A program made the position numbers and the translations under genes. The notes under the pieces were generated by a model. The model was not told where the DNA came from. It ran no database searches and saw only the letters and a program-made list of their open reading frames with translations. Shown here piece by piece: positions 12,543 to 62,775 of a stretch of 64,000 bases of DNA. The DNA is from Ophelia neglecta (lineage: Eukaryota): the NCBI GenBank assembly GCA_965285935.1, contig OZ260665.1:73594001-73658000 (forward strand). Reading direction: 5' to 3'. Numbering within the stretch: position 1 is the first letter of the stretch; each line of letters opens with the position of its first letter.

Positions 12543-13415
12543 TCAGTAAGCTCCATACATATAATTATGCGCGGGATAAGAAGCAGTCTGGGGAGCGGTA
12601 TTTATTGTCGTCTGGTGATGAGAATGAGGCATTGAGTCCATGTAACCTTGCCAGTGATTGTCAGTATACACGGGTGAAGACTGCATGGTGGTCGTCTGCA
12701 CACGGGGCACGTTAGCGGCTTGTGCTCCCGTCATTAATGCCATCATCGAGCTTACCGCACTGTTCATCGCCGTGCTCATGGCGTCGCTCATAGGCCCGTC
12801 CTGACATCCGTGAAAAAGATGTTCAGTTTTCAGTGACACCGGCGATTCACCAGAGTTATTAGCACACGATGTGAAAGGCATCTGTAAGTGGTTAATGAAG
12901 GCACTAGGATCATACTCACAGCCCAAGGTCTCTTGGCGCTCCAGCATTTTCACAGTTTCCGATAACATCCAGATGTAATTGTTGGCAAATCGGAGAGTCT
13001 CTATTTTTGTAAGCTTGGCGTCTTCTGGGAAGGTCGGAAGCACACAACGAAGTTTGTCCAGGGCGTCGTTCAAGCTGTGCATCCTGTTTCTCTCTCTGTC
13101 GTTGGCCTTAACTCTTCTGGTTCTCTTAATTTTCTGTGCCACTTCTGGACTGACCGCCTTACTTCGACTTTTGCTGTATCTCTTTTTTCCTGCCTTGCCG
13201 CATTTAGACTGTTTTGAGTTGGAGTTCTCATCTACCGGCATTTGAGTTTGTTCCGATAAGGAACCACTCAGGTCTGTGAAAGGGCTCTGGCCATCAATAC
13301 TTCTGTTGGTGTCCAGGTCGTAAAGATCTGGTCCCTCGGAGCAGGATGGACTACGGAGTTGACTGCCCGGGCTGCCCACCTCTGACATGCTATAAACGCT
13401 TGCTGTCTCGGACAT
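12543..13415 (-). CDS. neurog: Neurogenin (atonal-related proneural bHLH, tap/ngn class), single coding exon, 290 aa
   Basis: The b[59 protein letters not shown] is neurogenin-type. The pre-basic segment [25 protein letters not shown] resembles protostome tap/ngn. Start placed at ATG 13415 (ccacgaccATG, good Kozak), just downstream of a TATA-like/Inr pair; TGA at 12545-12543. Confidence 0.95.
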
Positions 13416-13465
13416 GGTCGTGGAAAGCAGAAATATGTGGCACACGACTTGCTTGTAGTCAGCAC

Positions 13466-13500
13466 ACTGAAGGGCCGAGTGCCATCTCTCGCCATTTATG
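13466..13500 (-). promoter_or_regulatory. Neurogenin core promoter: TATA-like CATAAAT plus Inr TCAGT
   Basis: Minus strand CATAAAT at 13500-13494 and TCAGT at 13470-13466 (A at 13468), 32 bp apart, the canonical TATA-Inr spacing. Gives a ~53 nt 5'UTR. Confidence 0.7.
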
Positions 13501-40420: not shown

Positions 40421-43400
40421 ATGTCAGTTCTTACATTCTTCGTAAACGGAAAAAAGGTATCGGCTTGAGCGTATTAGACACTTTTTATATTTCTATAACT
40501 GGTCATCCAAGTTATACAGGCTGAACGTACCCACTCTAACATGTATCTTGTCGTTGTCTGTCGATTGCATGTATTGTATAATGATCAAAATTGATTATTC
40601 ACCTTTGACCTTAATTCAGTATAGGGCCTATTGAAGAGTAGTGGCCAAAGTCTAATGGTAATATTTTTCTATCGAAAGTAGTGAGGTAACGATAAAGAGG
40701 ACGTAAGGTAGAGACTTGAACTGTTTTAAATGATAATGTTTGCCCCCTATGGAGCATAGATTAGAGAGGATTAGGAGACGGTATGTCATGTGTGTGTGTC
40801 TGTAAGGGTGTGTCTGTGTGTGTGTCTGTGCACCTGTTCACAAGATATCTCAAGAATCACTTTTTTCACCGATTTTGATGAAATTTGGTGAGAACCTAGA
40901 ATAGGACAATGGCTCAAGGCCATTAACTTTTGGTTAACCTATCTTATAAATCTAGATCACACCGTGACCTTGAAAATTGAAAATAGCTATATCTCGGCGG
41001 ATTATTGAACAATTTCAATAATATTTGGCACGAATGTAGCCAGTTATAAAATCATTTGTCCAAAATTATCTGTTTGACTTATTGAAGAAAATCAAGATCA
41101 CACCATGATCTTGAAAATACGAAATGGCTATATCTCAGCTGTTTATATGACGATTAACGTAAAATTTTGTGATAAGTTCTTCTGATGAAAATAATCTGGT
41201 TGACCTACTGTGAAAAGTCAAGGCCATACTGTGACCTTGAAAATTTCAAATGCCTGTATCTCAGCCGTTTACTGACCGATTTCCGCAAAATTTGCCACGA
41301 ATGTAGCCAGTTAAAATATCTGTTAAATTATCTTATTGACCTTTTTACAAAATCAAGGTCACACCGTGACCTTGAAAATTTTAAATGCCTGTATCTCAGC
41401 CATGTATTGAAAGATTTATATAAAATTTAAATGTAGCCAGTTAGAAGGTCTTGGGACTAATTTGATCTGGTTAATGTACTTTGAAAATCAAGATTACGCT
41501 ATGACCTTGAAAAGTTCAAATTGCTGTATCTCAGCTGTTTATTGACCGATTTTTGAAAACTTGGCATGAATGTAGCCAGTAAGAAGCTCTTGATCAAAAT
41601 ACAGTGAAACCTGTCTAATCAGGTCAGTCAAGGGACTGGAAAAAAATGACCACATTATGTAGGTGACCTTAATAGACAGGTCATTTAACATAGGCATAAG
41701 TGGGGATTTGGCTATTATTTAGTGACCTCAGTGGGCAGGTGACCTTATTACACAGGTGGCCACAAACACAGGTTTCACTGTACTTTAGTCATCTAGATGA
41801 TTTGCTTATTTTTGCTGATCTATATTTTGCAGAACTTTTTATTACGATCGAGAAACTATCAAAGGGGGAAGATATCGTATCCGATAGGATACACCTTTAA
41901 TTTATTTAAGTAAAGTTGAAGATAATGGAAGATAGAATCTTGTTTTTATTTATTTTTTGTTCTAGATTGAGGAGAGGACACCAGAGTTGTTATGTTCCTT
42001 ATTGTCTTATCTACGGAGGAACCGTATCCTTTGAACCGACTGTATAAACCGCACAGTTGTATTTTATTAACTGTCTCCACTGATAGGCCTACCACTGATA
42101 GAAGAAAATTAACAAAATGTGTCATTTCACAAATGGTAAAAATTGAGAACATACATAGCTTTAATTTAATTAACTAGATAAACAAATTCAGTGAGAGGTG
42201 CAGCAAGCCTACATATTTAGGAATATACAAATATATTTTTTTTGGTATGGTTGGCCATGCATATTTTATATCAATAAACCCAGTACACTTCCTCTGGCAT
42301 ATTCAAAGTTATTAGCCAGTTTTTTTTCTTCTGAGGGGTGGCTAATAACTAATGTAATTGGGCGTGTTAATAGGGGGATGTATGATCTAATTTTCCTATT
42401 GATATTTTGGTGTACATAGCTATATTACTTGCCCTCCTAATAGGCGTACCCTGCAATCCCGACCGCAGTCTCTTTAAAGACTTCTTTTTTGCATAACAGT
42501 ACATGCAGTGGGCAATTTTAGTATTTATCTCTCACTTTCCCTCTCCCGTCCTTGGATATGAAATGATCATTACTATTTAAAATACAAATATAACCCCTTC
42601 ATGTTATGAAAAGTGCTGCTAACGGGAACTAAGCTGGTTTGTGGACAGGGAGGCTGTGGAGCGTGTACCATTCTGATCACACGATACGACCATGACACCA
42701 AGACTCTCCGGTACGATTTATTGTATACCTTAAGGACAAATATATCAATGAGAATGTAAGTAAATAACAATTATAATACCCATTTTTAATGGATGTCAAC
42801 TATATATTTTACCCTGTGGTCCCTCGTTCAGCCATTTCAGCGTCAACGCCTGCTTGCTGCCGGTCGCCTGGGTACATGGATGTGCAATCACCACCATCGA
42901 AGGTCTGGGAAGTACTAAAAACAAACTTCATCCCTTACAGGTAATACATATATACTATAAGTACAGGACACTATCACCCTTTTGCCCGTACTGAAGATGA
43001 ATTCTTTTCCGAATTATATTGTATAAATGGAATGATTGATCGGCAAGGTAGGGCCTATTGAATAACTTTTTTTCTCATCTTAATGGACAAGTTTGTACAC
43101 ACATCTATCTCAAGATCATCTTGATCCTCTTTCATTGTCCGGTTATAATTGGAATCAGTTTTATCTTGTTTTAATCTGAAGAAATACATATAGTCCCTCA
43201 TGGAATATACGAAAGTGCATTATGTGTATTTATATAAATTTATTATATCCGCGAAATGCGGATATTAGTCGTTAACGCGATAACTCAAAAACCATTTCGT
43301 ACATCTTTTTCAAATTCAACACAGCCATAGACCTTATTGAGAGGAGGAACTGATTAGATTCTGGTGAAAATCCAATAATTATTAATTAGTTAAAACAATT

Positions 43401-46400
43401 AATTAATTACGTCAGAAACGCATTTTCTGCAAAAACACAAAAAATATTTGATACATCTTTTTCTAATTTGACACAGCCATAGACCTTATTGAGAGGAAGA
43501 CCTGTATTTATTCTGGTGAATTTCTGATAATTATTAATTAGTTAAAATAATTAATTAATTATGTCAAAAACACATTTTCTATCATATATTCCAAATTATA
43601 GATGATATTGGCTTGAAGTTTTGTGTCATGATTCATGTAATAACTATATACAATCTATGTAATAAGTTAACTAGTTAACCTTATTAATGACCTGAAAAAT
43701 AATTAGTTAAGGTGGTTTTGCATTATTCTTGAGGTCATATGGAACCAACTTTATTAATGACCTGCCTTCTTATTGAGGTTATTTAGAAGCTACTACAATC
43801 TGTGTAACAAGTTAACTAGTACTGTGTAATAAGTTAACTAGTTAACTTTATTAATGACCTGAAAAATAATTAGTTAAGGCAGTTTTTCATTATTATTGAG
43901 GTCATATGGAACCTACTACAATGTGTGTAATAAGTTAACTAGTTAACTTTATTAATGACCTGAAAAATTTCAGTTAAGGTCGTTTTGCATTATTATTGAC
44001 ATCTTATGGAACCTACTAATAAGTTCACTAGTTCACTTTATTAATGACCTGGAAAAAAATTAGTTAGGGTCGTTTTGCATTATTATTGAGGTCATATGAC
44101 ACCAACTTTAAGAATGACCTGCATTATTATTAAGGTCAAATAGAACCTACTACACTCTGTGTAATAAGTTAACTAGTACTGTGTAATAAGTTAACTAGTT
44201 ATATCCGCGAAATGCGGATATTATGTTTTCAGAAGCGCCGCCGCCGCCGCCGCAGATTTTAGTCGTTAACGCGATAACTCAAAAACCATTTCGTACATCT
44301 TTTTTCAAATTCAACACAGCCATAGACATTATTGAGAGGAGGAACTGATTAGATTCTGGTGAAAATTCCAATAATTATTAATTAGTTAAAACAATTAATT
44401 TATTACGTCGGAAACGCATTTTCTGCAATAACACAAAAAATATTTGATACATCTTTTTCTAATTTGACACAGCCATAGACCTTATTGAGAGGAAGAACTG
44501 GACTTATTCTGGTGAATTTCGGATAATTATTAGTTAGTTAAATAATTAATTTATTATGTCAAAAACACCTTTTCTTTCAAATATTCGACAGTATAGATGA
44601 TATTGGCTTCAAATTTTGTCTCATGATTCATGTAATAAGTATATACAATCTGTGTAATAAGTTAACCATGTACAATCTGTGTAATAAGTTAATTAGTTAA
44701 CATTATTAATGGCCTGAAAAAAATTAGTTAAGGTGGTTTTGCATTATTATTGAGGTCATATGGAACCAACTTTATTACTGACCTGCCTTATTATTGAGGT
44801 TATATAGAACATTCTACAATCTGTGTAGCAAGTTAACTAGTACTGTGTAATAAGTTAACTAGTTAACTTTATTAATGACCTCAAAAAAATTAGTTAATGT
44901 AGTTTTGTATTATTATTGAGGTCATATGGAACCTACTACAATCTGTGTAATAAGTTAACTAGTTAACTTTATTAATGACCTGAAAAAAAATTAGTTAAGG
45001 TGGTTTTGCATTATTATTGAGGTCTTATGGAACCAACTTTATTAATGACCTGCCTTATTAATGAGGTTATATAGAACCTTCTACAATCTGTGTAACAAGT
45101 TAACTAGTACTGTGTAATAAGTTAACTAGTTAACTTTATTAATGACCTCAAAAAAAATTAGTTAAGCTAGTTTTGCATTATTATCGAGGTCATTTGGAAC
45201 CTACTACAATCTGTGTAATAAGTTAACTAGTTAACTTTATTAATGACCTGAAAATTTTTAGTTAAGGTCGTTTTGCACTATTATTGAGGTCTTATGACAC
45301 CAACTTTTAAGAATGACCTGCATTATTATTGAGGTCATATAGAACCTACTACAATCTGTGTAATAAGTTAACTAGTACTGTGTAATAAGTTAACTAGTTA
45401 ACTTTATTAATGACCTGAACAAAATTTAGTTAAGGTCGTTATCTTTTGTGCCAATTAAAAACTACCATATTCACTACCTCGCCTTATGCCATGTTCCCCA
45501 TTCGAATATTGCACGCATTCGCGGATATACCCCTTGCTGTCGGCCCCCCGACAGCGTTGGCCTAGTTTTGAAATATATCTTATCAAAATCATTTAACAAT
45601 CTATTTTGCCGTTTAGATGACATTTTTTCTGAAGTGAATATATGCAGAAACCCCTCGTGGAAGAGTTAAAATATAATATATACTGTACGCTAGATAAACA
45701 AGGCTTGTAAACATGGTATGAAATACACTCAATAGGTTTATATTATTAACCGATTACTTAAGGGTATACCGAACCCCTACTGGATATTAAATTTCATAAT
45801 TGGGTGATTTTTGAAAAAGTACTGTTTTAGATAGAGCTTGATCTGCTCTATCCATTGGTGTGTTTATTTTCATTCTTAGCATTTTAAAATTTAGTCAAAA
45901 AAGGATTTTTATTCATGCCCATCAGCTAATTGTTTGTTTACAAACAAGACATGTTATGGTATTGTTAGCCACATGACCATAGTGATCAGCCATGCATGAC
46001 CAAGCATTAGGCAATGGCAATTAGGCTCCTCCCCACTCTCACTGGATCACTGATAGTTGTGATAAACTGAATAATATGATAGGTGGGATACCTGTTCATA
46101 ATATGTTAGTATGCCCAAGAAATCACTAATAGAACTCATGTAGAATGGCTCCAAGGAAGAGGCTGTGTCTGAATTTTCATATGACAATAAACTTATCAAT
46201 AACAGTATATAATAGGTCTACAGAATGTATAGCAAGCTTTGACATAGAGCCCGATGAAAACGACGACAAATACAGATAATTGCGCTTCATGTACATGTAG
46301 TCTACGTGCTTTATTATAGAGCGTGTGTCAGAAGGCATGTACATGTATGTGAGCGATAAAACGTGAAACAAACGTTCCTAACTTACTAGATGTATATTTA

Positions 46401-49400
46401 TCGCCGAGAATTTCACTTTATCAAATTCAACAGAGGCTAATCCATTCCTACAGGCACAGACCAGAGTTTATCCCACAATTGGCCGCAATCTAATTACAAA
46501 TGTTTGAAAAGGGTCTCTTTTTCCGTCCCATCCTTTAGGAATATCCCACCATCCACAATTATTTTGTATATGAAGTACACGGTATTTGCAATAATCAATC
46601 GATGTCTGAAGTCACATATTATTCTTTCGCTAATTAAATTCCAACTGATGATGCATGCTTTATATTTGACAAAGTCGCTAAACTTATATAAACAGATGAT
46701 CTGTCTGATACCACTAATCTCCCCTACTTGGCTCCGCCCATAAGGGCTGACGCGACGGCATCACAGCCAATTAAAATGTGTCCGTGTGGCTCACCACGTG
46801 GAACTGAACGAGTGACATTTCAACCGACTAAAACTCACCGACTAAACTTTCAAAATTACGCTTATGATTGGAAGAAAGAAAATGACAGTTTGTGGGATTG
46901 TAGGGGACTATACTGCCCTAGTGGCTAGTGAAAAGGTGAGAATGCATCAAGCCAAATCCAGGCGTCCAAGTGAGAATAACAGTGTTCCGGCGCCTTCTTT
47001 GTTGATTAGCCGCGAAGATGAGTTGGTGTAAATTGCAAGCTATTAATCATTTTCAAACAACGCTGGCCTCGTCAAACTTTAACCGAATTAAAATCCGCAA
47101 ACGGCAACTTGTCAACAAGAGTTAGATCTAGTAAACGGTCATTCAGATTTTTTATAAGATTTTCCATCAATTAGTAATCAATCGCCAAAGTTGAAATAGC
47201 CAATAATGAGTACTATATTAGATGACTAGTTACAAAGCCTATTTAAATCACTGGTTAGGAGAGGAATTTGGAAAATCTGAATGACCGTTTACTAGTTTAC
47301 ACTCTTAGGAACACATTGGCACAACTGTCACACTTGTAAATAATGTCAGTGGTTCATGGCAATCTTAGAAAAAAATACCTATATTTTCTAACAAAAAGTG
47401 CTACAAAGTCACAATTTTCAATTTTTTTTTCAGAAATTTCCACTCATAGGCCTTATGGTACCTAGTGGGTACTATATATTATGAAAAATTTGTTGTATAT
47501 ATTGTAATCGTCGACAAAAATCAATTATAACACTTTACATCAACTAGGGGTTCGGTATACCCTTAACTCCTAAACTAGTATATAAATATATATATATATA
47601 GCCTTTCCCCACCCACAGAGTAGCCTTGCTGAGCACCACGGTAGCCAGTGTGGGATGTGTTCTCCCGGGGTAGTGATGTCCGTACAGGGACTCCTGTGTG
47701 GCCGACCAGAGCCTCCGACTGTCAACGACATCGAGGACACACTAGCTGGTATGTTAAACGCCACTCTCATCCTAGTTACCTTTGTCACTGTTTGAGAATT
47801 TTTTGGAATGTACATTGATTTATCCCTAGGAAACCTCTGCAGATGCACTGGATATCGACCAATATTTGACTCATTTGAACCATTTTCAAAGGTGCGTGTT
47901 TATTTGTTACTTAATCTAGCGGCAAAACCCCCAAGGCTGCTTCACCAATGTAATTCTTTGCGCCGTTTCTGTTTTACGAAAAAGAAGATGAACTGAAGTA
48001 AATGTGTCCTCATTTTGACAAATGACGGTCTTGAATACATTTTGAGTTTATATCTACATGTGAACTATATAATAAACCAAAACAATCATGCTCCTTTACA
48101 CTTTACAGGAGAATTCCGACGTAGCAAAATGGCAAGAAGTGCGTTCCCTTCTAACACCAGTGTCCATCGAAGACCTAAAGGTCAGATTGCTTCATACAAT
48201 TAAAATAATAGAAAATGTTCATCAGATCATTCTACATATATGCCCTATATTGTATTTTACCTATCCTTAATTTCGTGTCATGTTGTGTTCTTTGCAGAGT
48301 CTTTCGTCTCAGTCCGTGGTATTGAAGGACGCTGATACTGTTTGGTATCATCCAACAACCTTGTCCGAGTTACTCAAGATAAGGACCGAGTATCCCAAGG
48401 CGCCCCTGGCTCTGGGGTTTACCACGCTGTGTAAGGTCTTAGGCACGGGGTTGGGTGGGGGGAGGTGAGGGCTTAACAGCGACCCATGGGATCGGCCTTT
48501 TTAATTGTCCGTGAGCCGAGAATTTAAGGTTTAATTTTTCGTGATTCGGGATTTGACATTTGTCCGTGATTCAGGATCAAGGATTTTAATGAACTGTGAC
48601 CTTGGGATGTCCTATTTAATTTCCCGTGACTAGGAAATAATTTAAATTGATCGGGGTGCGGAAAATAATTATTTTCTTATTGCATGAAAAATCCAAATTC
48701 AAATGTGCTTAATTTGGGATTTGCCTATTTTTCAAACTGGGAACGCTCACCCCCTAATCCTCCCCCCATAGGCATTGACATGAGAAACGTTCGGCTAAAA
48801 CGAAGTCGTCGTGTCCAAGACGCGGAACACCGCTTAACTGTCACACCGGGTCATGCCTTTCTGCAGCTCCACCACGTGGGGCTGCAGCAGACCCAGCACT
48901 TAAATCCATAATTCCCGAGGGCTATCCCAGGCTGTAAACGTACTGGCATTTAGCAAGCGTACTCGTCCTTGGGACAGTGAAATATCAACTTAAATATACA
49001 AGGAACCACCTAGTTGTACTATTAATTTGTTACTCGCCCAAATTAAACTACATGGGTCTTGCTAACAACACGGCACCAATGTATATATGCTAATTAAACT
49101 ATTTCAGTTTGGTCACATGTAAAGCAAGCTGGTAGCAAGACGCCAGTAGTTATATCGGGGACAGATGTCCCAGAATTGTATAACATAGAAATGACAAACA
49201 CGGGACTTGTGATCGGTGCTGCTACCACCGTAACACGACTAGTGGAATATATCGAAGAGACTGGGAATCCATCTGGTATGTTAGTCATGGCAATATTCAT
49301 ATTTTCGTAGTTTCAAAATACTTCCATAAATTTGTTCCGATGAAAGTATTTTGAAAATATCGTAGACCTAAAAAAGAGGATAGACTGAAAATATTTATTC

Positions 49401-52400
49401 ATCAGTATATATTATTTTTACTCTCAATTCAAATTGGTTGATAAATTATTTAAATCGTAACACCTCTGACCTTGCATTGTTACTCTATATGTAATGGAAA
49501 TTTATAAACCTGTGATCTGTTTGCTACATTCTAAACAGGTTACCAATTTTCGGGATTTCTGGAAATGGCTCGGATGTTGAAAACTGGATTTGGCAGTGCC
49601 CAGCTTAGAAATATAGCGGTATGGGAATTTTGAGTGGCTTTTATGTTCAGAGCTTATTCATAAGGGTTTGCATTGTTGGGTTTGATTTGATTTATTTTAA
49701 AGAAAGACCGCGAAATTCAACTGGCACAAAAGAAGGAACCTCAAGTAGAACACCCATATTATATGACCTACCTAATAACACCTAAGGTCTTATAAAGTGG
49801 TCCTTCGAAATATCGGCCATCACATTCGTCGCCCACTTAAAAATACCTTGATACATCACAGATGCTTACATCGGAAAATCAAAGTATAAACATTTCAACT
49901 AGTCATTTAAGAAATCTAATATCTCGTTTCTTACCATTTGGTCTAAATAATAATATTTTTTAGACCCGGAAATATTAGAACACGATTTAACTCTGACTGC
50001 GTGTCATTCCAGAGCCTTGCACCAGTATATGTAAAACTAGATTTATCACAAAACCAATACGGGCAGAATTACATTATGAGAACTGCTCCTCTTAGAATAA
50101 TTGAGAGAAATTTCTCTGTGGGTACAGATATATTTTTGGGCTGGCCCGTTCGAATATTTATAAACAAGACACACAGTATTATAATTAAACCCTGTCCTTG
50201 ACTATTTAACTAGAACTAATTCATTTGTTGAAATGATGAACCTCATTATGATGTCTAGGATATTGATGTTCAGTTTCTCATTGTTCTTCTACAAAAAACA
50301 AATCATGTAGTTTCAATATCTATTTTCTGTTTTATGATAAAATGGTCGATTTCTTACAGTATTTTTTAATACGTGAAGGTCGTACAATAATTGTATGTCC
50401 AATCTTTATAGACAATTGGTGGAAGTATCGCCAGCGGCAGTGGCAGCTCCGACATAACGACAGCTTTTGTTGGTCTTGTTGGATCTATCACCGTGCAGAG
50501 TCTTGGTTGGTGACAGTCATAGTAACTTTCATCAAAAGTATAAGAACATCCCGGAACATTCTATGTATGCCTTTATAGAAATAAATAGAGTTTGTGTGTA
50601 TGAATCAGTAATCGGAGTTTCTTTTTAAGCTTCCAAGCGGGTTGTCCGAATGGATCAAAACTTTTTGACTCTGTGTACGCACGACCTTTTGAAGGAAGGA
50701 GAAATAATTATCTCTGCTGAATTACCATTCACGAATCAGGTTATTTGAACATTACCTCAAATTAATAACAAAGATTTGCATTTGTATCTCATATGCTTCA
50801 TTTGTCCACACTTAAAATTACTCGATCACAAGGCATGATTTGCCATTCATTTGTATTATTGACAGGAGGAAGTTGTGAAAATGTACAAGCATGTCCTAAG
50901 ACGAGGGGCCAAAAGTATTCTGACATTGGCTGTCCGATGTGGCCTATCAGAGTTTAAAGGATTAAAGACGTTATGCAACTCCAATATCGCTCTCGGAGGG
51001 TTTGGAAAACATGTCCGCCTGCTCAAACAGACAGCTGACGTCATGAATTTAAGGTTTATCTCGTACATCCCTTTGTTTAATTACCTTTAGCCTGAATCAT
51101 CACAATAAGGATATACTTGTTGATCTATGAGCAATTGACAAGGCACCCTAGTGAATTAATTCCATACGATTAACCTGACATTATAACTTTGTTATGTTTT
51201 CTTCCATAGCAGCAAACAAGAAGACTCACTCCATTGGAAAGCTTGTATCAAAGATTCCCTGTTAAAGGACCTTGCAGATGTGTCCAGAGCGGAGGCAGGT
51301 GAACAAAAATATCAAGTTGATGTAACAGCCAATGTTTTGTGTACAATCTTGAAACAGATTTTTGGCGAGGACCAGGTACGCCTTTATGAGACTGTAATTA
51401 TTCTAATAACCTTAGCATGTTTATTTATCAAAACCTGTATTATCGCCTATAAAATACACCCCAGGAAATGATAATTATCAAGTCGAAAATGTTCAACATT
51501 CGTGCAGAAGTTGGTTCGGAATATAAGTCTAGCAAGTGAGCAAAAGTTCATGAGCGCCCCAGACGACCAATCAGAAAATGATCACGTGGGTAGACCTTTA
51601 GTCCACCAAGCGGCGTACCAGCAATGTACGGGCGAGGCTCTTTACATGGATGATATTCCTGCCCGAAAAGGTAACGTTATGGCAGGAAATACCCCCCCCC
51701 CCCCCCCATAACTCTCATTGCAGACTTAGAGTTAGGGACCTTGGGATTGATATTTGTTGTCCTGCAGCCGACGGTTCTTTGTGATTTCGTAGATATTTTA
51801 TGGACTATTTTTCATGATTGATTTTACTTTGCCTGCCGGGTATCCACTCCCGTTTTCTAATAGTATTATAATAATACACCTATATACCGTCCATCATCTT
51901 CTGTTACTTAATTGTAATGTCGGTGATGTTATTTAAAATCGTTTAGGCGTTTGCCCTAATGCAGTCCTATAAAGAACAATGCGCACCCCTGCCGTTCTTC
52001 CAAATCATAAAGTCTATTCCCTCTTCCCACCGATATTATACTGTAATCTCTTTGATTTTCTATTTTTAAATGGAATATTATACTAACATAAACATATATT
52101 ATCTTACTTAAAGAACGGGTATTTATTTCAATCAAAAGACAATTTCTTAAAGAATGGGTTTTTACGATTAAGAAAAGAACAATTTCTTTATTCCCTGTAG
52201 TCTTTATACAATTTCGTGATTCTTTTGGTCAATTATTTTATAAATCTCCTATATTTCTTTCAGATGAGTTGTTCCTTGCGTTTGTTACGAGCACCAGAGC
52301 GCACGCTAAGCTGATATCAGTCGACCCCTCGGAAGCGCTGGCTCTCCCTGGGGTTGTGGATTTTATATCTGCCTCAAGCGTCCCACCATCAATGAAAGGC

Positions 52401-55400
52401 ACCTTCGCTTCGGACACGGTTGGCATAGATAGTTTTTGCCACTTAATTTATGGGATTTATAGTCCAACATAGTGCGTTTCTTCTGCATTCCTTTTTACCC
52501 TCAGGATGTTGAGGTATATTGAGTACAATATAATCATACCGACTTTGCTGGTGGTAGGTGGAGTACCACAGCCAGCCCATTGGTGTGGTTCTTGGTGTCT
52601 CTCGACAAACCGCCCGGCATGGAGCCCGCATGGTGAAAGTAGAATACGAACATCTCGAACCAGTGCTTGACATGGAAGTAAGTACACCAGGGGCGGATCC
52701 AGGGGGGGGGGGGGGGCAGGGGGCTTCCCCCCCCCCACCCACCCACCAATTTTCTGTACACGTATATAGCTACAAATGTTACGTTGAAAGTAGAAATATT
52801 TTTTCTTAAAGCAGGGTCTTATACAAAAAAGCACATGTGTAGTAAAACACCTATCGTTGTAAAAGCATAATGTAAACCAGTTCTTGATGGAGACATAGAC
52901 TGTACTATAAGCAACTAGCTTTGTTATAGTAAATGAACTTTTCATTCGACAAAAATGTGTCATATGTCAGAAGGCAATAGAAAACGGGGCGTTTCTCGGG
53001 GACAGAAGGTTCAGTCGTGGAGACGTTACTAAGGCCCTCCAGGACTCTGATCGGGTGGTCTCGGGGACTGTCCGTCTGGGGTCTCAGGAGCACTGGTACC
53101 TGGAGACACAGTGTTGTCTGGCCGTGCCGGGAGAAAATGGGGAAATGGAGGTCACAATCCCCACTCAGCATCAATCACCTGTTCATGTAAAAGCATTTTT
53201 ATATCTTTAACTTAAATACAAGCAATGTTGTTTTGATTAACTAAGAAATATAATTAGCCTTTATAAATTCTAATATTAATACATAATCAATCGTTTGCAG
53301 CAAGCAGTGTGCAAAGCTGTCGGCTTATCTTCAAACAAAGTTGTGCTGAGAACCAAGCGTCTAGGTAAATATGTCAAAAAATATTTTTTGTTTATCTCTG
53401 AATTTAGTTAACTAACAAATGCCGACCAGTTTACTGATATACTACCAATATTTTTTTTCACACTGACAGGCGGTGGTTTTGGAGGTAAAGATGTTGGCAG
53501 AGGAACACTTTTGGCAGTACCTACAGTTTACGCTGCAAACAAGTGAGCGTTCATTCTGACTAACTCAGATTTCTTTCCTTACTACTCAGCTTAACATGTA
53601 GACCCAATCCTCAATTAACTGCTGGGTGTATGGGTATGTGAAGGCTTATACAGGATGCAGGGTTGCTTCAGCAGAGTCCGTATCTCCTTGTTTGGTGTGC
53701 TGACCCCCCCCCCCCCCCCCCCCGTATCTATTTCCTGAGACTGCGTCGGAACCTGCATTAATAGCTCTTGCGACTACTGTTTGCCGAGTATTTCTTTTGC
53801 CTTCACGACACGAGATTTATACACGTTCTGTACCTACCTATTTTTCTCCATCACTTTTCTTGTATCCCTCTGTATAGACATGGCCGCCCGATAAGATGCG
53901 TTCTTGAGAGGGAAGAGGACATCCGTCTAACAGGACAACGATGTCCTTATCTCGCGCATTACAAGGCAGGTATATTTACACAAATCATTGATTTAACGGA
54001 GTTTTATATGTAGAATGGTTGGTTGAGGCGTCAGTACCTATGCGCTATGGTGGCACTGTAGATGTTTTCTTCATATCCCTATTATTTGGAGCTGATTCCA
54101 ACGAGTGGTTTATTCGTCACCCAGTATTTTGACTATTACAACAATAAATGTATATGTGAAGTGTGTATGCTGCCTATGTTAATGGCTCGAAACTATTGGT
54201 GAACAGCTTATAACCTGCCATTAGCTACCCGAGACGATGCCGAGGGATCCTAATAGCAAAATGTTTTATTTATCATTCATTTGCACGTACCCACAAAAAG
54301 CACCATGACATATTAATATTATCAGGTATCCCTTTTATCGTTCTGTTTGATAAAAACATCAATATAACTTCCACCAAAATAGTACAGACCAATACTGGTC
54401 ATTCTATAATGACCACGGCAAGAGTGGGCTAATTGCCGCTTACTTCCTAGCCAAATCTTGTGAAAAGTATATCTTGTCGACTGGTAACTTCCTGACAAGC
54501 GATATCATTGACACATTGTTGGTTTTTGAAAGGCCTTATGTTTGGCGTTAATTCTATTCCAGCTTGGTTGCCAGAACGACGGGACTATCAACGCTTTCGA
54601 TTTGGAGTACTTCATTGACGGAGGTTGGAAAGGCGACAAAAGCTTGGGGGTAAGAATGAAACGAACAGTCTTTTTTATCAGCCAGGAGATAATTGTAGAA
54701 ACAAGGCAGTTGGCGAGCAGGCAGGAAGCTGACGACCGTGGCGGCTTACGGGGGAAGGAGGAGGGGGGGGGGGGGGGTCACTATATTGCCTGTATCTTCT
54801 TGTACAAACATAAATGATTATGCCCCCATTCGAAGAAGTGGAAGCTAAGCCATGTTGCACTTGTCGGTCAGTAGGTCGGTCTGTCGGTAGTCAAAACATT
54901 GTCCGATCAATTACCAGACAGTCGTTTGTCCTACGTTCCTCAAGCGTGGTTAGGTATAGTTTTTTCATAACGGGCAGATAAGCCCTATAGATTTTGAGGT
55001 CAAAGGTCAAGGCCACAGTGACCTTTAACACAAAAAAACTCAGATAAATGTTTGGAGAAAGCTGTCTGAAGAAATTTTTGCCAAGTTTCCCCAATCTCTG
55101 TAGGAAGGTTGTTCAAGGCCGCTTTTGATAATAGTGACCTTCGATGCTAAATGCAAAAAAAATCTTTCTGATCTAGAACTAGAGACATCTTGGGTTTAAT
55201 ATTCTAAGACTTGACAAGTAGGTTGGTCTAGAAGGTGACCCCTGCCGATTATGTGGTCAGCATGTCAAATGTCAAGTTGACGGTGGCCTTTTGCACATAA
55301 AACTTGTCCTATCAAAAACTATAGAACTCGGGAGTTTGGTATGCTCATAGTTTATAGGTATGTTGATCATAACCAGTAAATGATTCCTTTTCATATTGAG

Positions 55401-58400
55401 TTCAGCAGGTCAAAGTCCCTGCCCGGACTGGCCGTTTTAAAAATTAAATTAAAAATTTAGATTAACTGACAAGGCGCAACCGTGTCCTGTATACAAATAT
55501 CTTGTTTATTTCTATTCCACTGTTTTCTTCACCTTCAGGTGCTCAAGAAAGGGATGATGAACCTCGACAACTGTTATAAGTTCCCTGTGGCACGCCTTGA
55601 AGGCCGATCCTGTAAGACCAATAAGTCTTCTAAGCCACCTTTCCGAGGGTTCGGCTCGCCAGAGTGCCATTTCCTCGTGGAATCTGCCATGGATCAGTGT
55701 GCTAGGGAGCTCAACATGGAACCAACCGAGGTCAGAGAAATTACTCAATAAATCAGGATTAATCAAGTTCAGTATTTTCAAATAATCAACATATTACCGT
55801 ATGCATGCCGATATGAATTATCAAGAGAAAGGATGAAGTTTCTAAATATGTCCAGTTTCCCAGCGGCTGGAGACACCTTCCACCAGCACCGAATCCTTAT
55901 TTTAGTTGTTCAAAGTTGGATTGGTTATGATGCATATGATTTATTCAAACTGTTTACAGTTTCGTGGTAAAAACCTGCTGTCGGTGGGCGACATGACAAT
56001 AATGAACACCAAGCTAGATGACTGTACAGCTTCCAGGTGTTGGGAGGAAGTCCTCCGCCTAAGTGACTACGAAAACAGGCAGAAGTCGGTTTCACAGTTC
56101 AACAGGTATATTTAAAGAGTATAAAGCAAGCAACATAACATAGAAACGAGATTAAAGAAGGGGCTACTATAGCTATGGTTACCATTGAATAAATAAATCC
56201 TCAATTTATATTATGTGTTGCAGTTCTCATCAGTCTCGTAAACGTGGACTATACGTAGTGCCTACTAAGATGTCCGGCACGTTTCCTTTAGAGAAAAGAC
56301 TCGGCGGCTCTTCTAACAGGGTATTGATAGTTAAATGTATCATTGCTACAATGTTCAGGGTAACATTGGGAAATGTTTTCAATATATGCTATCAAGTTGA
56401 ATAAAGCATCTATCAAAAACCAAAGGAGCATAGTGTTAAATGCAGCATTTAATGTGAAATTGTTTTTCATTTGTCAAGGGTTCCGCGGTGGTCAATGCGT
56501 ATCTGGATGGCACAGTCCTGGTGTATCACAATGGAGTCGAGATGGGACAAGGACTTCACACCAAAATGATACAGGTCTTTATGCAAATACTGTCTATTGG
56601 ATATAAGATTAAAATAACCCATATTAATGTGCGCGACTTGAAAACCAATGTTCTCGTTATCCGGCTTCTCATTTCGTTACAAAATATTCTAGAAATGTAT
56701 TATTCGTTCATGCCTCCACAATAATAGGTTTGTTATATAGGTAATTGTAAAATTGTGTTTTCCAGGTTGCCAGTCGGGTGTTAAATATCCCTCCGTCCCA
56801 GATACATATCGCCGAAACTCGCACGGATATCTTGGCAAATTCAATTAACTCAGCCGGTAGTGCCAGCTCGGATATGAACGGTCCTGCTGTTAAGGTATAA
56901 CGTTTCTATCCTGTCTTAATTAGACCTGCCAATTGTAGAAACTACTTAAATAAGCGTTGTCGGCGTCAAGAATTGTATTTCATATATAAGGGTTATTTCG
57001 TTAACACGCGAGTCTAGGGTTGAGAAATTGCTTCAACCTTAGCCGCCCTATTTTAGAAGATTTCCAAACACCGACGACCTCCTCCCCTTTTTCAGTTAAG
57101 TAATTTCCTTTCTGCACTTCCGCGACCAGCCTCCCTCCCATTTTAAAATTAAAGCGTAATTAAGCAAGTTTTCTTTTTTTTGCAAGGACGCTTGTGAAAA
57201 AATGATGAAGCTTCTGAAACCATACAGCGACGCCAAACCTGATGGAAAATGGATCGACTGGGTTCGAATAGGTTTTTCATGTCGACAGTTGTCACTAAAT
57301 TAAAATTGTTGAAACGAGATATTTGTTGGTTATATAAATAATTAAGATTATTAATATTACAACTATATTTCGTATTATAGGTGAATGAAGCGGTTGGCGA
57401 CAGAGTGTCTCTTACGACTGTCGGCTACTTCCGGTCAGTCTCCCAAGCGATAACCTCAAACTCATCCCACTAATTAATACAGTTGTATGTGATTCATTGT
57501 ATTGGTTGGACCTGTGTTTTATGGGCGCCAACCAAAATATCATGTTTTCGTTGGCAAAAGTATACATAAAAGTCTCCGCGTAGAGACGTATGTTCTATAA
57601 TAATACATAAAGTTCATCACAATCTAAATGGCCTGACCAAGAAAACAAGTCTTCGTGATATTAACTTGGATCCTTTTGCTTTCCTCTCCTTTGCCCATAT
57701 ACAGACTAGAGGGTGATCATACCTGGGAGTGGCAAGATGGCGGACAGACCTTTCCGTATTTTACGTACGGAGCAGGCGTCTCTGAAGTGGAAATTGACTG
57801 TCTTACTGGCAAATACCAAGTGGGTGGAATTAGGGTCAATGGACAACTAATACAAAACGCTATGCATATATTGTAATAATGAAACTTGATATCATCCTGT
57901 TTTCTGGGTTTTTTTACAAATTAGATAAATATTTGACCTTACAGATAGTAAGAACTGATATTGTCATGGATGTTGGAAAGAGTCTGAACCCGGCGATAGA
58001 TATCGGTCAGATTGAAGGGGCTTTCCTCCAGGTGAAGTCCATTTTAGTACCATCTGAATTTCCACCCATACCTCTTTCACCGGGTAGTTAACATGTTTAA
58101 TGTTAATCTTCCCGCGCAATGTAAAAAAAACACCTCCTTGTGATCGATTCTTGTTTATGACTAACTGCCGGACCAACGGCAGAGCCGGCCACAGATTTAG
58201 ACAAAATCATTATTTCAGTCCATAATTAATCTTTTGCACCATTATTAAGTACAGGAAACGTTGATTATTTAATAACATCACTGAAAATACATTTTAAGAT
58301 TTATTTTAAGTTCACAGTCATTTCTATTTAGAATTTCTTCCACATGTTTTTTTAATTAAACGTGTCCACAATTCTATTGTAGATGACAGGACTTTTGACC

Positions 58401-58852
58401 ACTGAGAAGTTTGAATACACTAAGGATGGGGTCATCAAGTCGACTTCTATCGGTAACTACATTCTCCCTGGGATGGAGAACATTCCCAGAGAGTTTAACG
58501 TGTCTCTTCTGACAGAGTCGGAGAATCCGTGGCCACAGGCTGTGTACTCGTCAAAGGTAACAAATCTGTTCATACATATGTACTCGTGCGTCATTTGATT
58601 ATATTTACATGACTCTGTTATATTTTATTTGTACGTATATATATAAGCACGTTGGGTTAAATTGCCGTGTTAGTCTCGCCTCGTGTCATGCAGGCTATTG
58701 GTGAACCTCCGATGACTTTAGCCGTGTCTGTGTTTTTTGCCATACGAGAGGCTATCCGGGCTTGTCGTGAGGAGGCCGGTCTCGCGACTGATTTTACCCT
58801 GGAAGCCCCCGCCACACCCGACCGTGTACTGGCCGTCTGCTCCTCGGATTGA
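40421..58852 (+). CDS. XDH: Xanthine dehydrogenase/aldehyde oxidase family molybdo-flavoenzyme, 33 coding exons, 1263 aa
   Basis: Manually spliced exons: 40421-40456, 41966-42023, 42614-42710, 42832-42940, 47619-47748, 47830-47891, 48109-48180, 48298-48430, 49108-49275, 49539-49618, 50412-50505, 50630-50739, 50866-51053, 51210-51375, 51508-51670, 52264-52418, 52558-52677, 52971-53186, 53301-53364, 53470-53542, 53878-53965, 54563-54649, 55539-55730, 55960-56105, 56224-56320, 56479-56574, 56766-56894, 57187-57261, 57381-57433, 57705-57819, 57945-58031, 58383-58556, 58694-58852. Total 3792 nt, open frame. Motifs: [12 protein letters not shown]; Fe/[12 protein letters not shown]...NAC; Fe/S I QCGMC...LCRC; FAD domain QLRNIATIGGSI; Moco domain [51 protein letters not shown]. 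The symbol marks family membership; substrate specificity is uncertain. Confidence 0.93.
40737..41902 (+). mobile_element. Helentron-associated/DINE-like non-autonomous element in XDH intron 1 with ~130-140 bp internal subrepeats
   Basis: 5' TTTGCCCCCT roughly mirrored by 3' AGGGGGAAGA; (GT/CT) microsatellite near the 5' end; five GA(C/T)CTTGAAAA...TATCTC-based units (about 40959, 41101, 41229, 41362, 41498); 3' hairpin GTATCC-gata-GGATAC (41877-41892) before a T-rich end. Confidence 0.7.
41602..41780. mobile_element. Tc1/mariner-type MITE nested in the intron-1 element
   Basis: 13 bp TIRs CAGTGAAACCTGT / ACAGGTTTCACTG flanked by TA on both sides; 179 bp. Confidence 0.88.
42024..42613 (+). 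other. U12-type (minor spliceosome) GT-AG intron 2 of the XDH-like gene
   Basis: Donor GTATCCTTTG matches the U12 consensus. CCCCTTCAT (42594-42602) is a degenerate U12 branch with its A 12 nt from the 3' end; no polypyrimidine tract. Same position as the known U12 intron 2 of vertebrate XDH/AOX. Confidence 0.85.
43243..45567 (+). mobile_element. Head-to-tail dimer of a Helentron-associated (HINE/DINE-like) element with internal tandem satellite
   Basis: 5' end TTATATCCGCGAAATGCGGATAT (8 bp hairpin) at 43243 and again at 44199; 3' subterminal IR CGCATTCGCGGATATA (45514-45529); 3' hairpin GCTGTCGG-cccc-CCGACAGC (45536-45555); terminal CTAGTT; (GCC)n microsatellite in copy 2. Confidence 0.82.
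43655..45440. repeat. AT-rich tandem subrepeat arrays (~60-100 bp units) inside the intron-4 element
   Basis: Recurrent TGTGTAATAAGTTAACTAGTTAACTTTATTAATGACCTG...GCATTATTATTGAGGTCATATGGAACC units in two blocks (about 43655-44200 and 44650-45440). Confidence 0.9.
45762..47562. mobile_element. Non-autonomous DNA transposon with TTAA target duplication, Kolobok-like
   Basis: 18 bp perfect TIR GGGTATACCGAACCCCTA / TAGGGGTTCGGTATACCC with TTAA on both sides (45758-45761, 47563-47566). GG termini fit Kolobok rather than piggyBac (CCY). No transposase ORF. Confidence 0.85.
47128..47295. repeat. 24 bp perfect inverted repeat (probable nested MITE) inside the TTAA element
   Basis: CTAGTAAACGGTCATTCAGATTTT (47128-47151) and AAAATCTGAATGACCGTTTACTAG (47272-47295). 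Confidence 0.75.
52687..52750 (+). mobile_element. Short GC-rich MITE fragment
   Basis: CAGGGGCGGATCCAG followed by poly-G and poly-C, a terminus style common in invertebrate non-autonomous DNA elements; other end not found. Confidence 0.4.
53966..54562 (+). other. GC-AG intron 21 of the XDH-like gene
   Basis: Frame continuity (HYK|LGC, phase 0) requires the donor AAG|GCAGGT at 53966; the GT 4 nt downstream would frameshift. Confidence 0.75.
54818..55420 (+). mobile_element. Degraded HINE/DINE-like repeat in XDH intron 22
   Basis: TTATGCCCCCATTCGAAGAA start, (GTCG/GTCT)n microsatellite, repeated AGGTCAAAGGTCAAGG..CAGTGACC cores. The end is approximate. Confidence 0.6.
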
Positions 58853-62119: not shown

Positions 62120-62775
62120 ATGTCGGTGCTTAGGTTTTTCGTAAACGGGAAAAAGGTACGTTTTAAAATCGCTTGAAGGTAGCCGTGTTAAGATATCTAT
62201 TAGGCCTATCTCGTTCTCAGTATATTCCTACCATCCACGTAGTCAGTATATTTCTACCACGGGTCTTCGTCACTCATTTAACATAGATGTTAAACGCTTA
62301 TGTTGTTGGCTGTCATCGCATTGTTAACAATATTATTACACTGTAAACATGCCTTTGTCGTCGCATGCAAATGTGTTCCAGTGCATTTGTTTCCTACTTG
62401 ATTCCGTCCACCCTGGAGGCCTTAGAGCCGGGTCAGTAAACTAGCAGGACGGATGATGACCAGCCTGGACATGATGGCTTGGCCCCGAGTCCACACTAAT
62501 AACACAACTATCTATACCGATATCATATCAGAGTATAATACGGTCCTGGTCCCGGACTGACGGCTGGTCTATATTTCAATGTGTAATGGGTGCAGGAGTG
62601 TTTTATTAAGTGTCTCATCATAATAAGTGGGCGGCAATGCCTCAAACAGAAAAGAAAATGATAGGCTAAACTATAGTAATCCAGTTTTGTTCCTGTTTAA
62701 GATTATTTCGGTTTTAGATAGAGGAGAGAAGACCAGAGCCGTTGTCTTCATTACTGTCCTATTTACGGCGAGAGC
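62120..62775 (+). CDS. XDH: Second XDH/AOX-family paralog, exons 1-2 (62120-62155, 62718-62775); continues beyond the window
   Basis: Exon 1 MSVLRFFVNGKK|gtacg; exon 2 [19 protein letters not shown]|GTATCCTTTT. Same exon sizes (36, 58 nt) and 26/31 aa identity to the upstream gene; U12 donor at 62776. Exon 3 not found before 64000. Confidence 0.88.

Follow-up and report, generated by a model that had tools for sequence, protein, structure and literature searches.

A 64,000-nucleotide stretch of the genome of Ophelia neglecta (contig OZ260665.1, positions 73,594,001 to 73,658,000 of the forward strand; hereafter the window, with coordinates counted from its first letter) carries a gene, designated gene 1, whose predicted product belongs to the xanthine dehydrogenase (XDH) and aldehyde oxidase (AOX) family of molybdenum hydroxylases. 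Its active site corresponds neither to a textbook XDH nor to a vertebrate-type AOX, as the first-pass annotation of this DNA had proposed. Judging from the sequence, gene 1 is best read, with roughly even confidence, as encoding an XDH-derived single-chain enzyme, which would use O2 in an AOX-like manner and act on flat polar or anionic heteroaromatics, or on aldehydes, rather than on xanthine. It is likely a lineage-restricted AOX-like variant, i.e. one more repurposing of a known enzyme.

With exon borders read from the sequence, gene 1 spans 33 exons and a coding sequence of 3792 nucleotides, which translates into 1263 residues with a single, terminal stop codon. Pfam matches of single exons place the iron-sulphur (Fe/S), flavin adenine dinucleotide (FAD) and molybdenum cofactor (Moco) domains in this order along one chain, as in the single-chain eukaryotic xanthine oxidase family, the FAD_binding_5 matches of individual exons falling under the curated cut-off when scored singly. 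The deduced splicing involves 31 GT donors, one GC donor and 32 AG acceptors. The GC donor was chosen for intron 21 (53966) because the GT located four bases further on shifts the frame, so that a model restricted to GT donors breaks after exon 21 and the GC restores it; a genuine frameshift at this place was set aside in its favour. The sequence around it, AAG/GCAGGT, presumably matches the usual GC-AG donor pattern. Intron 2 begins with GTATCCTT both in gene 1 (42024), where its acceptor is AG, and in a tandem paralog (62776), and we take this donor to be of the U12 type, namely of the minor-spliceosome type. Two additional exons were tried and ruled out, i.e. a 9-nucleotide micro-exon at 52505-52513, which would leave an intron of 44 nucleotides when the shortest accepted one has 81, and an overlooked linker exon inside intron 6, which would leave an intron of 28 nucleotides.

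Regarding the active site, residues are numbered as in bovine XDH, Asp802 being placed through an alignment to human XDH (2ckj) with a human-to-bovine offset of one (PMC3624778). All the motifs quoted in the first-pass annotation are present, in frame, inside GT/GC-AG exons; that annotation had set the enzyme at 52264..56894, which is only the middle of a larger gene, the Fe/S cysteines and Glu1261 lying outside, but the residue changes reported inside this interval are real. Asp replaces Glu802 directly after GGGFGGK, and Lys replaces Arg880 in an alignment to the bovine structure 1fo4 that runs gap-free from residue 878; the same register, together with a multiple alignment, gives Lys for Leu873 and Asn for His884. 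Since searches of the PDB with exons 20 and 25 singly returned no match, the change of Thr1010 to Pro, next to Phe1009, and the five additional residues are drawn from multiple alignments, which also yield SAGS in place of TAAS. The deletion of about seven residues in the Leu648 loop holds against human residues 642-655. By alignment, the Moco contacts Gln767, Arg912, Gln1040 and Gln1194 (the last two presumably so numbered) are retained, as are Phe914, Phe1009, the catalytic Glu1261 and the eight Fe/S cysteines (model residues 41, 46, 49, 71, 111, 114, 147 and 149). The residue following the conserved Gln1194 is Met (58383-58385), and Gly in every other row covering the site. In strict terms, the Glu802, Arg880 and Phe1009-Thr1010 pair of an XDH are found here as Asp, Lys and Phe-Pro, and the hydrophobic residue at 802 and the Lys884 of a vertebrate AOX (PMC3864932) as Asp and Asn. 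A one-residue insertion after Asp802, the change of Glu879 to Lys, the GC donor of intron 21 and the altered FAD domain had been overlooked earlier. With Lys873, Lys879 and Lys880 on one helix, the pocket would become more positive.

How unusual this pocket is was surveyed in a tree set of 30 other Moco-domain copies and in a wider set gathered from several searches. In the former, Lys880 occurs in 4 of the 29 copies with a residue there (two from Helobdella, one each from Pomacea and Danionella), Pro1010 in 6/28 and Asp802 in 0/26. In the latter, Lys880 occurs in 21/164, including one misaligned fragment (P0034), a share inflated because 17 of the 21 came from a search with the Lys-bearing exon; Asp802 is found in 1/70, this single case being a member of an archaeal cluster, Lys873 in 0/114, and Pro909 and Pro910 in 0/181 each. 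Going by these alignments, other animal paralogs also carry Lys880 and Pro1010, and Asp802, Lys873, the double proline and the two loop changes appear private to gene 1. The combination of Asp and Lys, previously put forward as distinctive, thereby keeps its rare member, Asp802, but loses the other, as Lys880 and likewise Pro1010 are shared with leech, apple-snail and fish paralogs. An exhaustive search of 1.84 billion representatives with exon 23 gave 698 matches, the best 150 of which are at most 50% identical; a word-index search with this exon gave no match, and a metagenome scan four loci with 44-60% identity over 20-38 residues. Full-length invertebrate paralogs are thinly sampled in this survey, a search among proteins of 2380-5000 residues having given eight fused records. 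Non-canonical residues at 880, 884, 914 or 1010 were observed in several invertebrate proteins, a number of them annotated XDH-like, namely P0044 and P0096 (Helobdella), P0090 (Pomacea), P0146 (Physella), P0018 (Lingula), P0099 and P0277 (fireflies) and P0102 (Polypedilum), position 880 being Lys, Ala, Val, Gln or Ser in such proteins and position 914 being Ser in P0044.

The consequences for catalysis can be considered against what is established for the family. Glu1261 acts as the base, and Glu802 and Arg880 orient purines (PMC3624778; PMC9966888). In the mechanism expected from the established chemistry, Glu1261 would deprotonate Mo-OH, Mo-OH would attack the carbon of a substrate gripped between Phe914 and Phe1009, and electrons would exit via the Fe/S centres. 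The purine-orienting set would be weakened simultaneously at 802, 880 and 1010, Lys880 may supply one amine where mouse AOX3, which has Pro at 1010, uses a Lys889 situated near the Arg880 position (PMC3864932), and the shortened Leu648 loop would open the channel; a positive pocket and an open channel would together favour aromatic aldehydes or N-heterocycles of neutral-polar or anionic character, possibly for detoxification or in a side branch of pterin- or kynurenine-type metabolism. Experiments on bacterial XDH give a scale for such changes: R310K lowers the rate 20-fold, compared with 10,000-fold for R310M, and mutation of Glu232 costs about 10-fold (PMC9966888), while E232V/R310M shifts the enzyme to aldehydes, yet mouse AOX1 becomes inactive when the exchange is made in the opposite direction (PMC2671166). 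The mildness of the Arg to Lys exchange, the retention of both charges and the recurrence of Lys880 with Glu802 in Helobdella and Pomacea proteins annotated XDH-like are what speaks for gene 1 still being a purine hydroxylase, i.e. an enzyme that slowly oxidises xanthine or hypoxanthine and in which Asp and Lys are conservative swaps. Yet this seems quite unlikely, as the changes extend to Thr1010, His884, Leu873 and the gating loop, every characterised XDH keeps the Phe-Thr pair (PMC5746545), and no XDH-like protein compared exceeds 39.7% identity over the full length. As for the former proposal of an intact enzyme for a different polar substrate, it benefits from an open and constrained frame, but is weakened by Lys880 and Pro1010 being present in other paralogs and in AOX3 and by the merely 20-fold effect of Arg to Lys.

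Beyond the substrate pocket, no part of the protein is altered as strongly as the FAD domain, where 16/34 invariant columns are retained, compared with 40/43 in the Fe/S and 97/114 in the Moco domains. GNTE is changed to GFTT, Asn351 to Ser and Tyr393, a residue with a role in NAD binding, to Cys; in flavin loop I, RRGAK, one residue shorter, stands for the RREDD of a strict XDH, and the linker between the Fe/S and FAD domains is about 45-50 residues shorter than in most relatives. Hamster AOX-type copies likewise lack Tyr393 and the acids of RREDD. Since the flavin loops are altered, O2 rather than nicotinamide adenine dinucleotide (NAD+) would be the likely acceptor; the loop I of human AOX1 is also divergent, and this enzyme is unable to use NAD+ (PMC5531472). 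Besides, a FAD domain devoid of flavin could be envisaged, electrons going from the Fe/S centres to another partner or the protein persisting as a catalytically dormant scaffold: the contrast in invariant columns, the Asn to Phe change in GNT, the replacement of loop II, the shortened linker and the absence of Pfam matches for exons 13 and 14 (exon 13 searched singly also had no PDB match) all lean that way. Against it, Gly260, Thr262, Phe337, a Gly-Gly pair, Ser359-Asp360 and Arg426-Arg427 are retained, and AOXs deviate at several of the same positions, human AOX1 being nonetheless 93% FAD-saturated (PMC5531472), and this possibility seems quite improbable. Altered flavin binding appears likelier than loss of flavin because core flavin-side residues remain. 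We take Gly260, Thr262, Phe337, the Gly-Gly pair, Asp360 and Arg426 to be these core residues.

Several lines of evidence indicate that gene 1 is likely functional. When columns are classed by their conservation, the invariant class being defined among 10 full-length proteins with Glu802 and Arg880, the product retains 154/192 invariant columns, compared with 98/425 in the most variable class. Under simulated neutral substitution (300 runs each), the frame remained open in 1/300 at 0.05 changes per site and in 0/300 at 0.1, where the simulated identity is still 80%, i.e. about twice the best real value. A tandem paralog (gene 2) follows in the same orientation, with no exon found beyond exon 2 before the window ends; its exons 1-2 are identical to those of gene 1 at 72/93 bases, the differences being mostly synonymous. 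Across the 30 shared codons, the two genes differ at 14.5 of 22.5 synonymous but 6.5 of 67.5 non-synonymous sites (Fisher p 8e-7), giving a ratio of non-synonymous to synonymous divergence (dN/dS) of about 0.07, far from the value near 1 that was to be looked out for. Public contigs were available from three runs (X1, X2 and X3) of one sample, from which the window itself may derive, and for this reason are not independent; the comparison lists 40/298 substitutions and 12/35 gaps. Among the differences listed, none is exonic across exons 20, 22 and 23, and in three allele contigs with fully listed differences 11/11 are intronic (chance 0.003, the contigs having been picked after the fact). Other contigs, with roughly double the haplotype depth, connect exons 8-9 and 19-20-21 through different introns, show differences in exons 5, 15, 18 and 26, and are read as one or more close paralogs. 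Between haplotype-level contigs, at least 15 differences were seen in the 140 intronic bases of 52803-52942, which suggests high heterozygosity.

A number of points weigh against a functional, O2-using hydroxylase with a new specificity. The open frame depends on the GC donor of intron 21, the acceptor of exon 17 (52558) is weak and a stronger AG at 52503-52504 is out of frame. The dN/dS of about 0.07 spans just 30 codons of the first two exons, in the Fe/S domain, and two allele-level exonic differences among those listed (51355 and 51661) are both non-synonymous. One base of exon 16, at 52361, is missing from a contig at depth 29.8 of 41.1 in X1, found also in X2 and X3; this contig probably derives from a paralog, other readings being a null allele or an alignment artefact. 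The retention of 16/34 invariant FAD columns could signify loss of flavin and not an oxidase switch. Specificity is not set by residues of the Glu232/Arg310 type alone (PMC2671166), and residual xanthine activity is possible because Arg to Lys costs 20-fold and mutation of Glu232 about 10-fold only (PMC9966888). The two unusual splice sites, the unexplained one-base-deletion contig and the 38 lost invariant columns are also what a recently dead or dying duplicate would display. Such a state is highly improbable for a frame that runs through 1263 codons with no premature stop, although identity has fallen to about 40%, and which no simulation at 0.1 changes per site kept open, with the low dN/dS relative to the tandem paralog; moreover, AAG/GCAGGT fits the usual GC-AG pattern.

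The phylogeny suggested by the first-pass annotation could be completed in one respect, the states at 802, 880 and 1010 being read across the set, but delivered no supported clade. Quick trees group gene 1 with Pomacea and Physella and, in 2 of 3 trees, also with the two Helobdella paralogs (84-90 in the Shimodaira-Hasegawa-like approximate likelihood ratio test). In a careful tree of 22 rows (9/31 excluded as partial or redundant), which is devoid of vertebrate XDH and insect AOX, gene 1 has no supported position among animals and the longest branch, 1.23 per column. Bootstrapping recovers a five-row group with leech and snail paralogs in 794/1000 replicates and a group of gene 1 and vertebrate AOX in 0/1000, although this second group is not rejected by the approximately unbiased test (p 0.245). 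The trees point weakly to a spiralian host, an animal rich in introns. The earlier suggestion of an undescribed invertebrate subfamily is not demonstrated: no relative exceeds 50% over exon 23 (best 150 of 698 matches), no clade is supported and paralogs were found only in the same genome. Judged by its residues, gene 1 falls in no described subfamily, and a literature search, with most subscription papers outside its reach, brought up no description of an Asp802/Lys880 enzyme or of the spiralian paralogs.

The long branch also bears on whether gene 1 is narrowly specialised for a single heteroaromatic metabolite, anionic or polar and of the nicotinate, kynurenate or pterin-acid kind, held by an Asp802/Lys873/Lys880 pocket in the manner of the fungal enzyme HxnS, an XDH duplicate turned nicotinate hydroxylase (PMC5746545). 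The lysines at 873, 879 and 880, the rarity of Lys873, Pro909, Pro910 and Asp802 in the wider set, the retention of Phe914 and Phe1009 and the precedent of HxnS (PMC5746545) argue for it. However, none of the hallmarks of HxnS, i.e. Glu, Arg and an Ala after Phe1009, is found here (PMC5746545), private residues need no special meaning on a branch of that length, and the window displays no pathway neighbours, its only other recognised gene being a neurogenin-like one, so that a specialist of this kind seems rather unlikely. Going further, the pocket, absent from every eukaryotic relative surveyed, might define an acid-specialised animal hydroxylase whose electron exit bypasses NAD+ and possibly FAD and which founded a small tandem family in an unsampled invertebrate lineage, in other words an animal counterpart of HxnS; this is a long shot. 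The reading retained here is the broader one, an AOX-like hydroxylase derived from XDH.

Features of gene 1 and of its tandem paralog in the window
Feature	Coordinates	Strand	Basis or detail
Whole gene 1	40421..58852	+	33 exons, 1263 aa
Exons 1-6, two [2Fe-2S] domains, eight Cys	40421..47891	+	40/43 invariant columns kept
Exons 7-14, shortened Fe/S-FAD linker and FAD domain, most altered part	48109..51375	+	16/34 invariant columns kept
Exon 16, 7-residue deletion in Leu648 channel-mouth loop	52264..52418	+	human residue alignment
Exon 18, Gln767 retained (codon 53166-53168)	52971..53186	+	PTQH Gln
Exon 20, Glu802 to Asp (53490-53492), then 1-residue insertion	53470..53542	+	alignment
Exon 21, GQRCP, GC donor at end	53878..53965	+	frame
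Exon 22, Leu873 to Lys (54638-54640), Ser876 to Gly	54563..54649	+	alignment
Exon 23, Glu879 to Lys, Arg880 to Lys (55548-55550), His884 to Asn, Thr909/Ala910 to Pro-Pro; Arg912, Phe914 retained	55539..55730	+	alignment
Exon 25, Phe1009 retained, Thr1010 to Pro (56285-56287), +5 residues	56224..56320	+	multiple alignments
Exon 27, SAGS for TAAS (Gly at second Ala, like several AOX-like proteins)	56766..56894	+	multiple alignments
Exon 32, flavin-side loop II (RGP motif) replaced, YKIP Lys to Ile	58383..58556	+	alignment
Exon 33, catalytic Glu1261 retained (58703-58705), stop codon	58694..58852	+	alignment
Tandem paralog (gene 2) exon 1	62120..62155	+	similarity to gene 1
Tandem paralog (gene 2) exon 2, GTATCCTT donor	62718..62775	+	similarity to gene 1

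Besides these features, intron 4 of gene 1 (4.7 kb) holds an AT-rich repeated array at about 43200-45430, visible by eye and also as recurring translations. A single-exon, neurogenin-like basic helix-loop-helix gene was also recognised, on the reverse strand (12546-13496) and about 27 kb upstream of the molybdoenzyme; its exact protein sequence is absent from the protein collection searched.

A natural triple change at 802, 880 and 1010, combined with an AOX-like flavin site, offers a test of reading specificity from these residues, and bears on how often oxidases arise from XDH. The general event is unsurprising, because repurposed XDH duplicates are known in fungi (PMC5746545), in flies, which have four Aox genes (PMC5817353), and in vertebrates; gene 1 would be of wider importance only if it were shown to act on a new class of substrates or to work without flavin. 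Besides, several XDH-like paralogs with Lys880, all uncharacterised, are present in the genomes of leech and snail, where automatic annotation labels them xanthine dehydrogenase.

Compared with known systems, gene 1 is closest in identity to XDH (39.7% over the full length and 47% over 734 Moco columns), and shares with the bovine (1fo4), human (2ckj), Hylaeus (P0217) and Solemya (P0064) proteins the domain order, the Fe/S cysteines, Gln767, Arg912, Phe914, Phe1009 and Glu1261. It departs from them by Asp802, Lys880, Pro1010, Asn884, Lys873, Pro909-Pro910, a loop deletion and an insertion, as well as by the absence of Tyr393 and of the RREDD loop. The spiralian XDH-like paralogs (Helobdella P0044 and P0096, Pomacea P0090 and Physella P0146), with full-length identities to gene 1 of 36-38%, have Lys880 in three of four cases and Phe/Tyr-Pro-Leu at 1009-1011 in two of four; unlike gene 1, all of them keep Glu802, none has the five-residue insertion or the loop deletion, and the three with a FAD domain retain the acidic flavin loop. 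Like gene 1, vertebrate AOXs (human AOX1, mouse AOX3 and Danionella P0282) are without Glu802 and Arg880, Tyr393 and the acidic flavin loop, mouse AOX3 having in common with it the Pro at 1010, the AOX-like protein of Danionella (Val802/Lys880) its Lys880, and two AOX-type rows the Gly in the TAAS motif, but they carry Val, Ala or Leu at 802 and Lys at 884 where gene 1 has Asp and Asn. Finally, HxnS of Aspergillus (purine hydroxylase II, a nicotinate hydroxylase) resembles gene 1 in being derived from XDH with a change at the Phe1009-Thr1010 site (PMC5746545); it is a fungal enzyme from a nicotinate gene cluster that, unlike gene 1, retains both Glu802 and Arg880 and has an Ala inserted after Phe1009.

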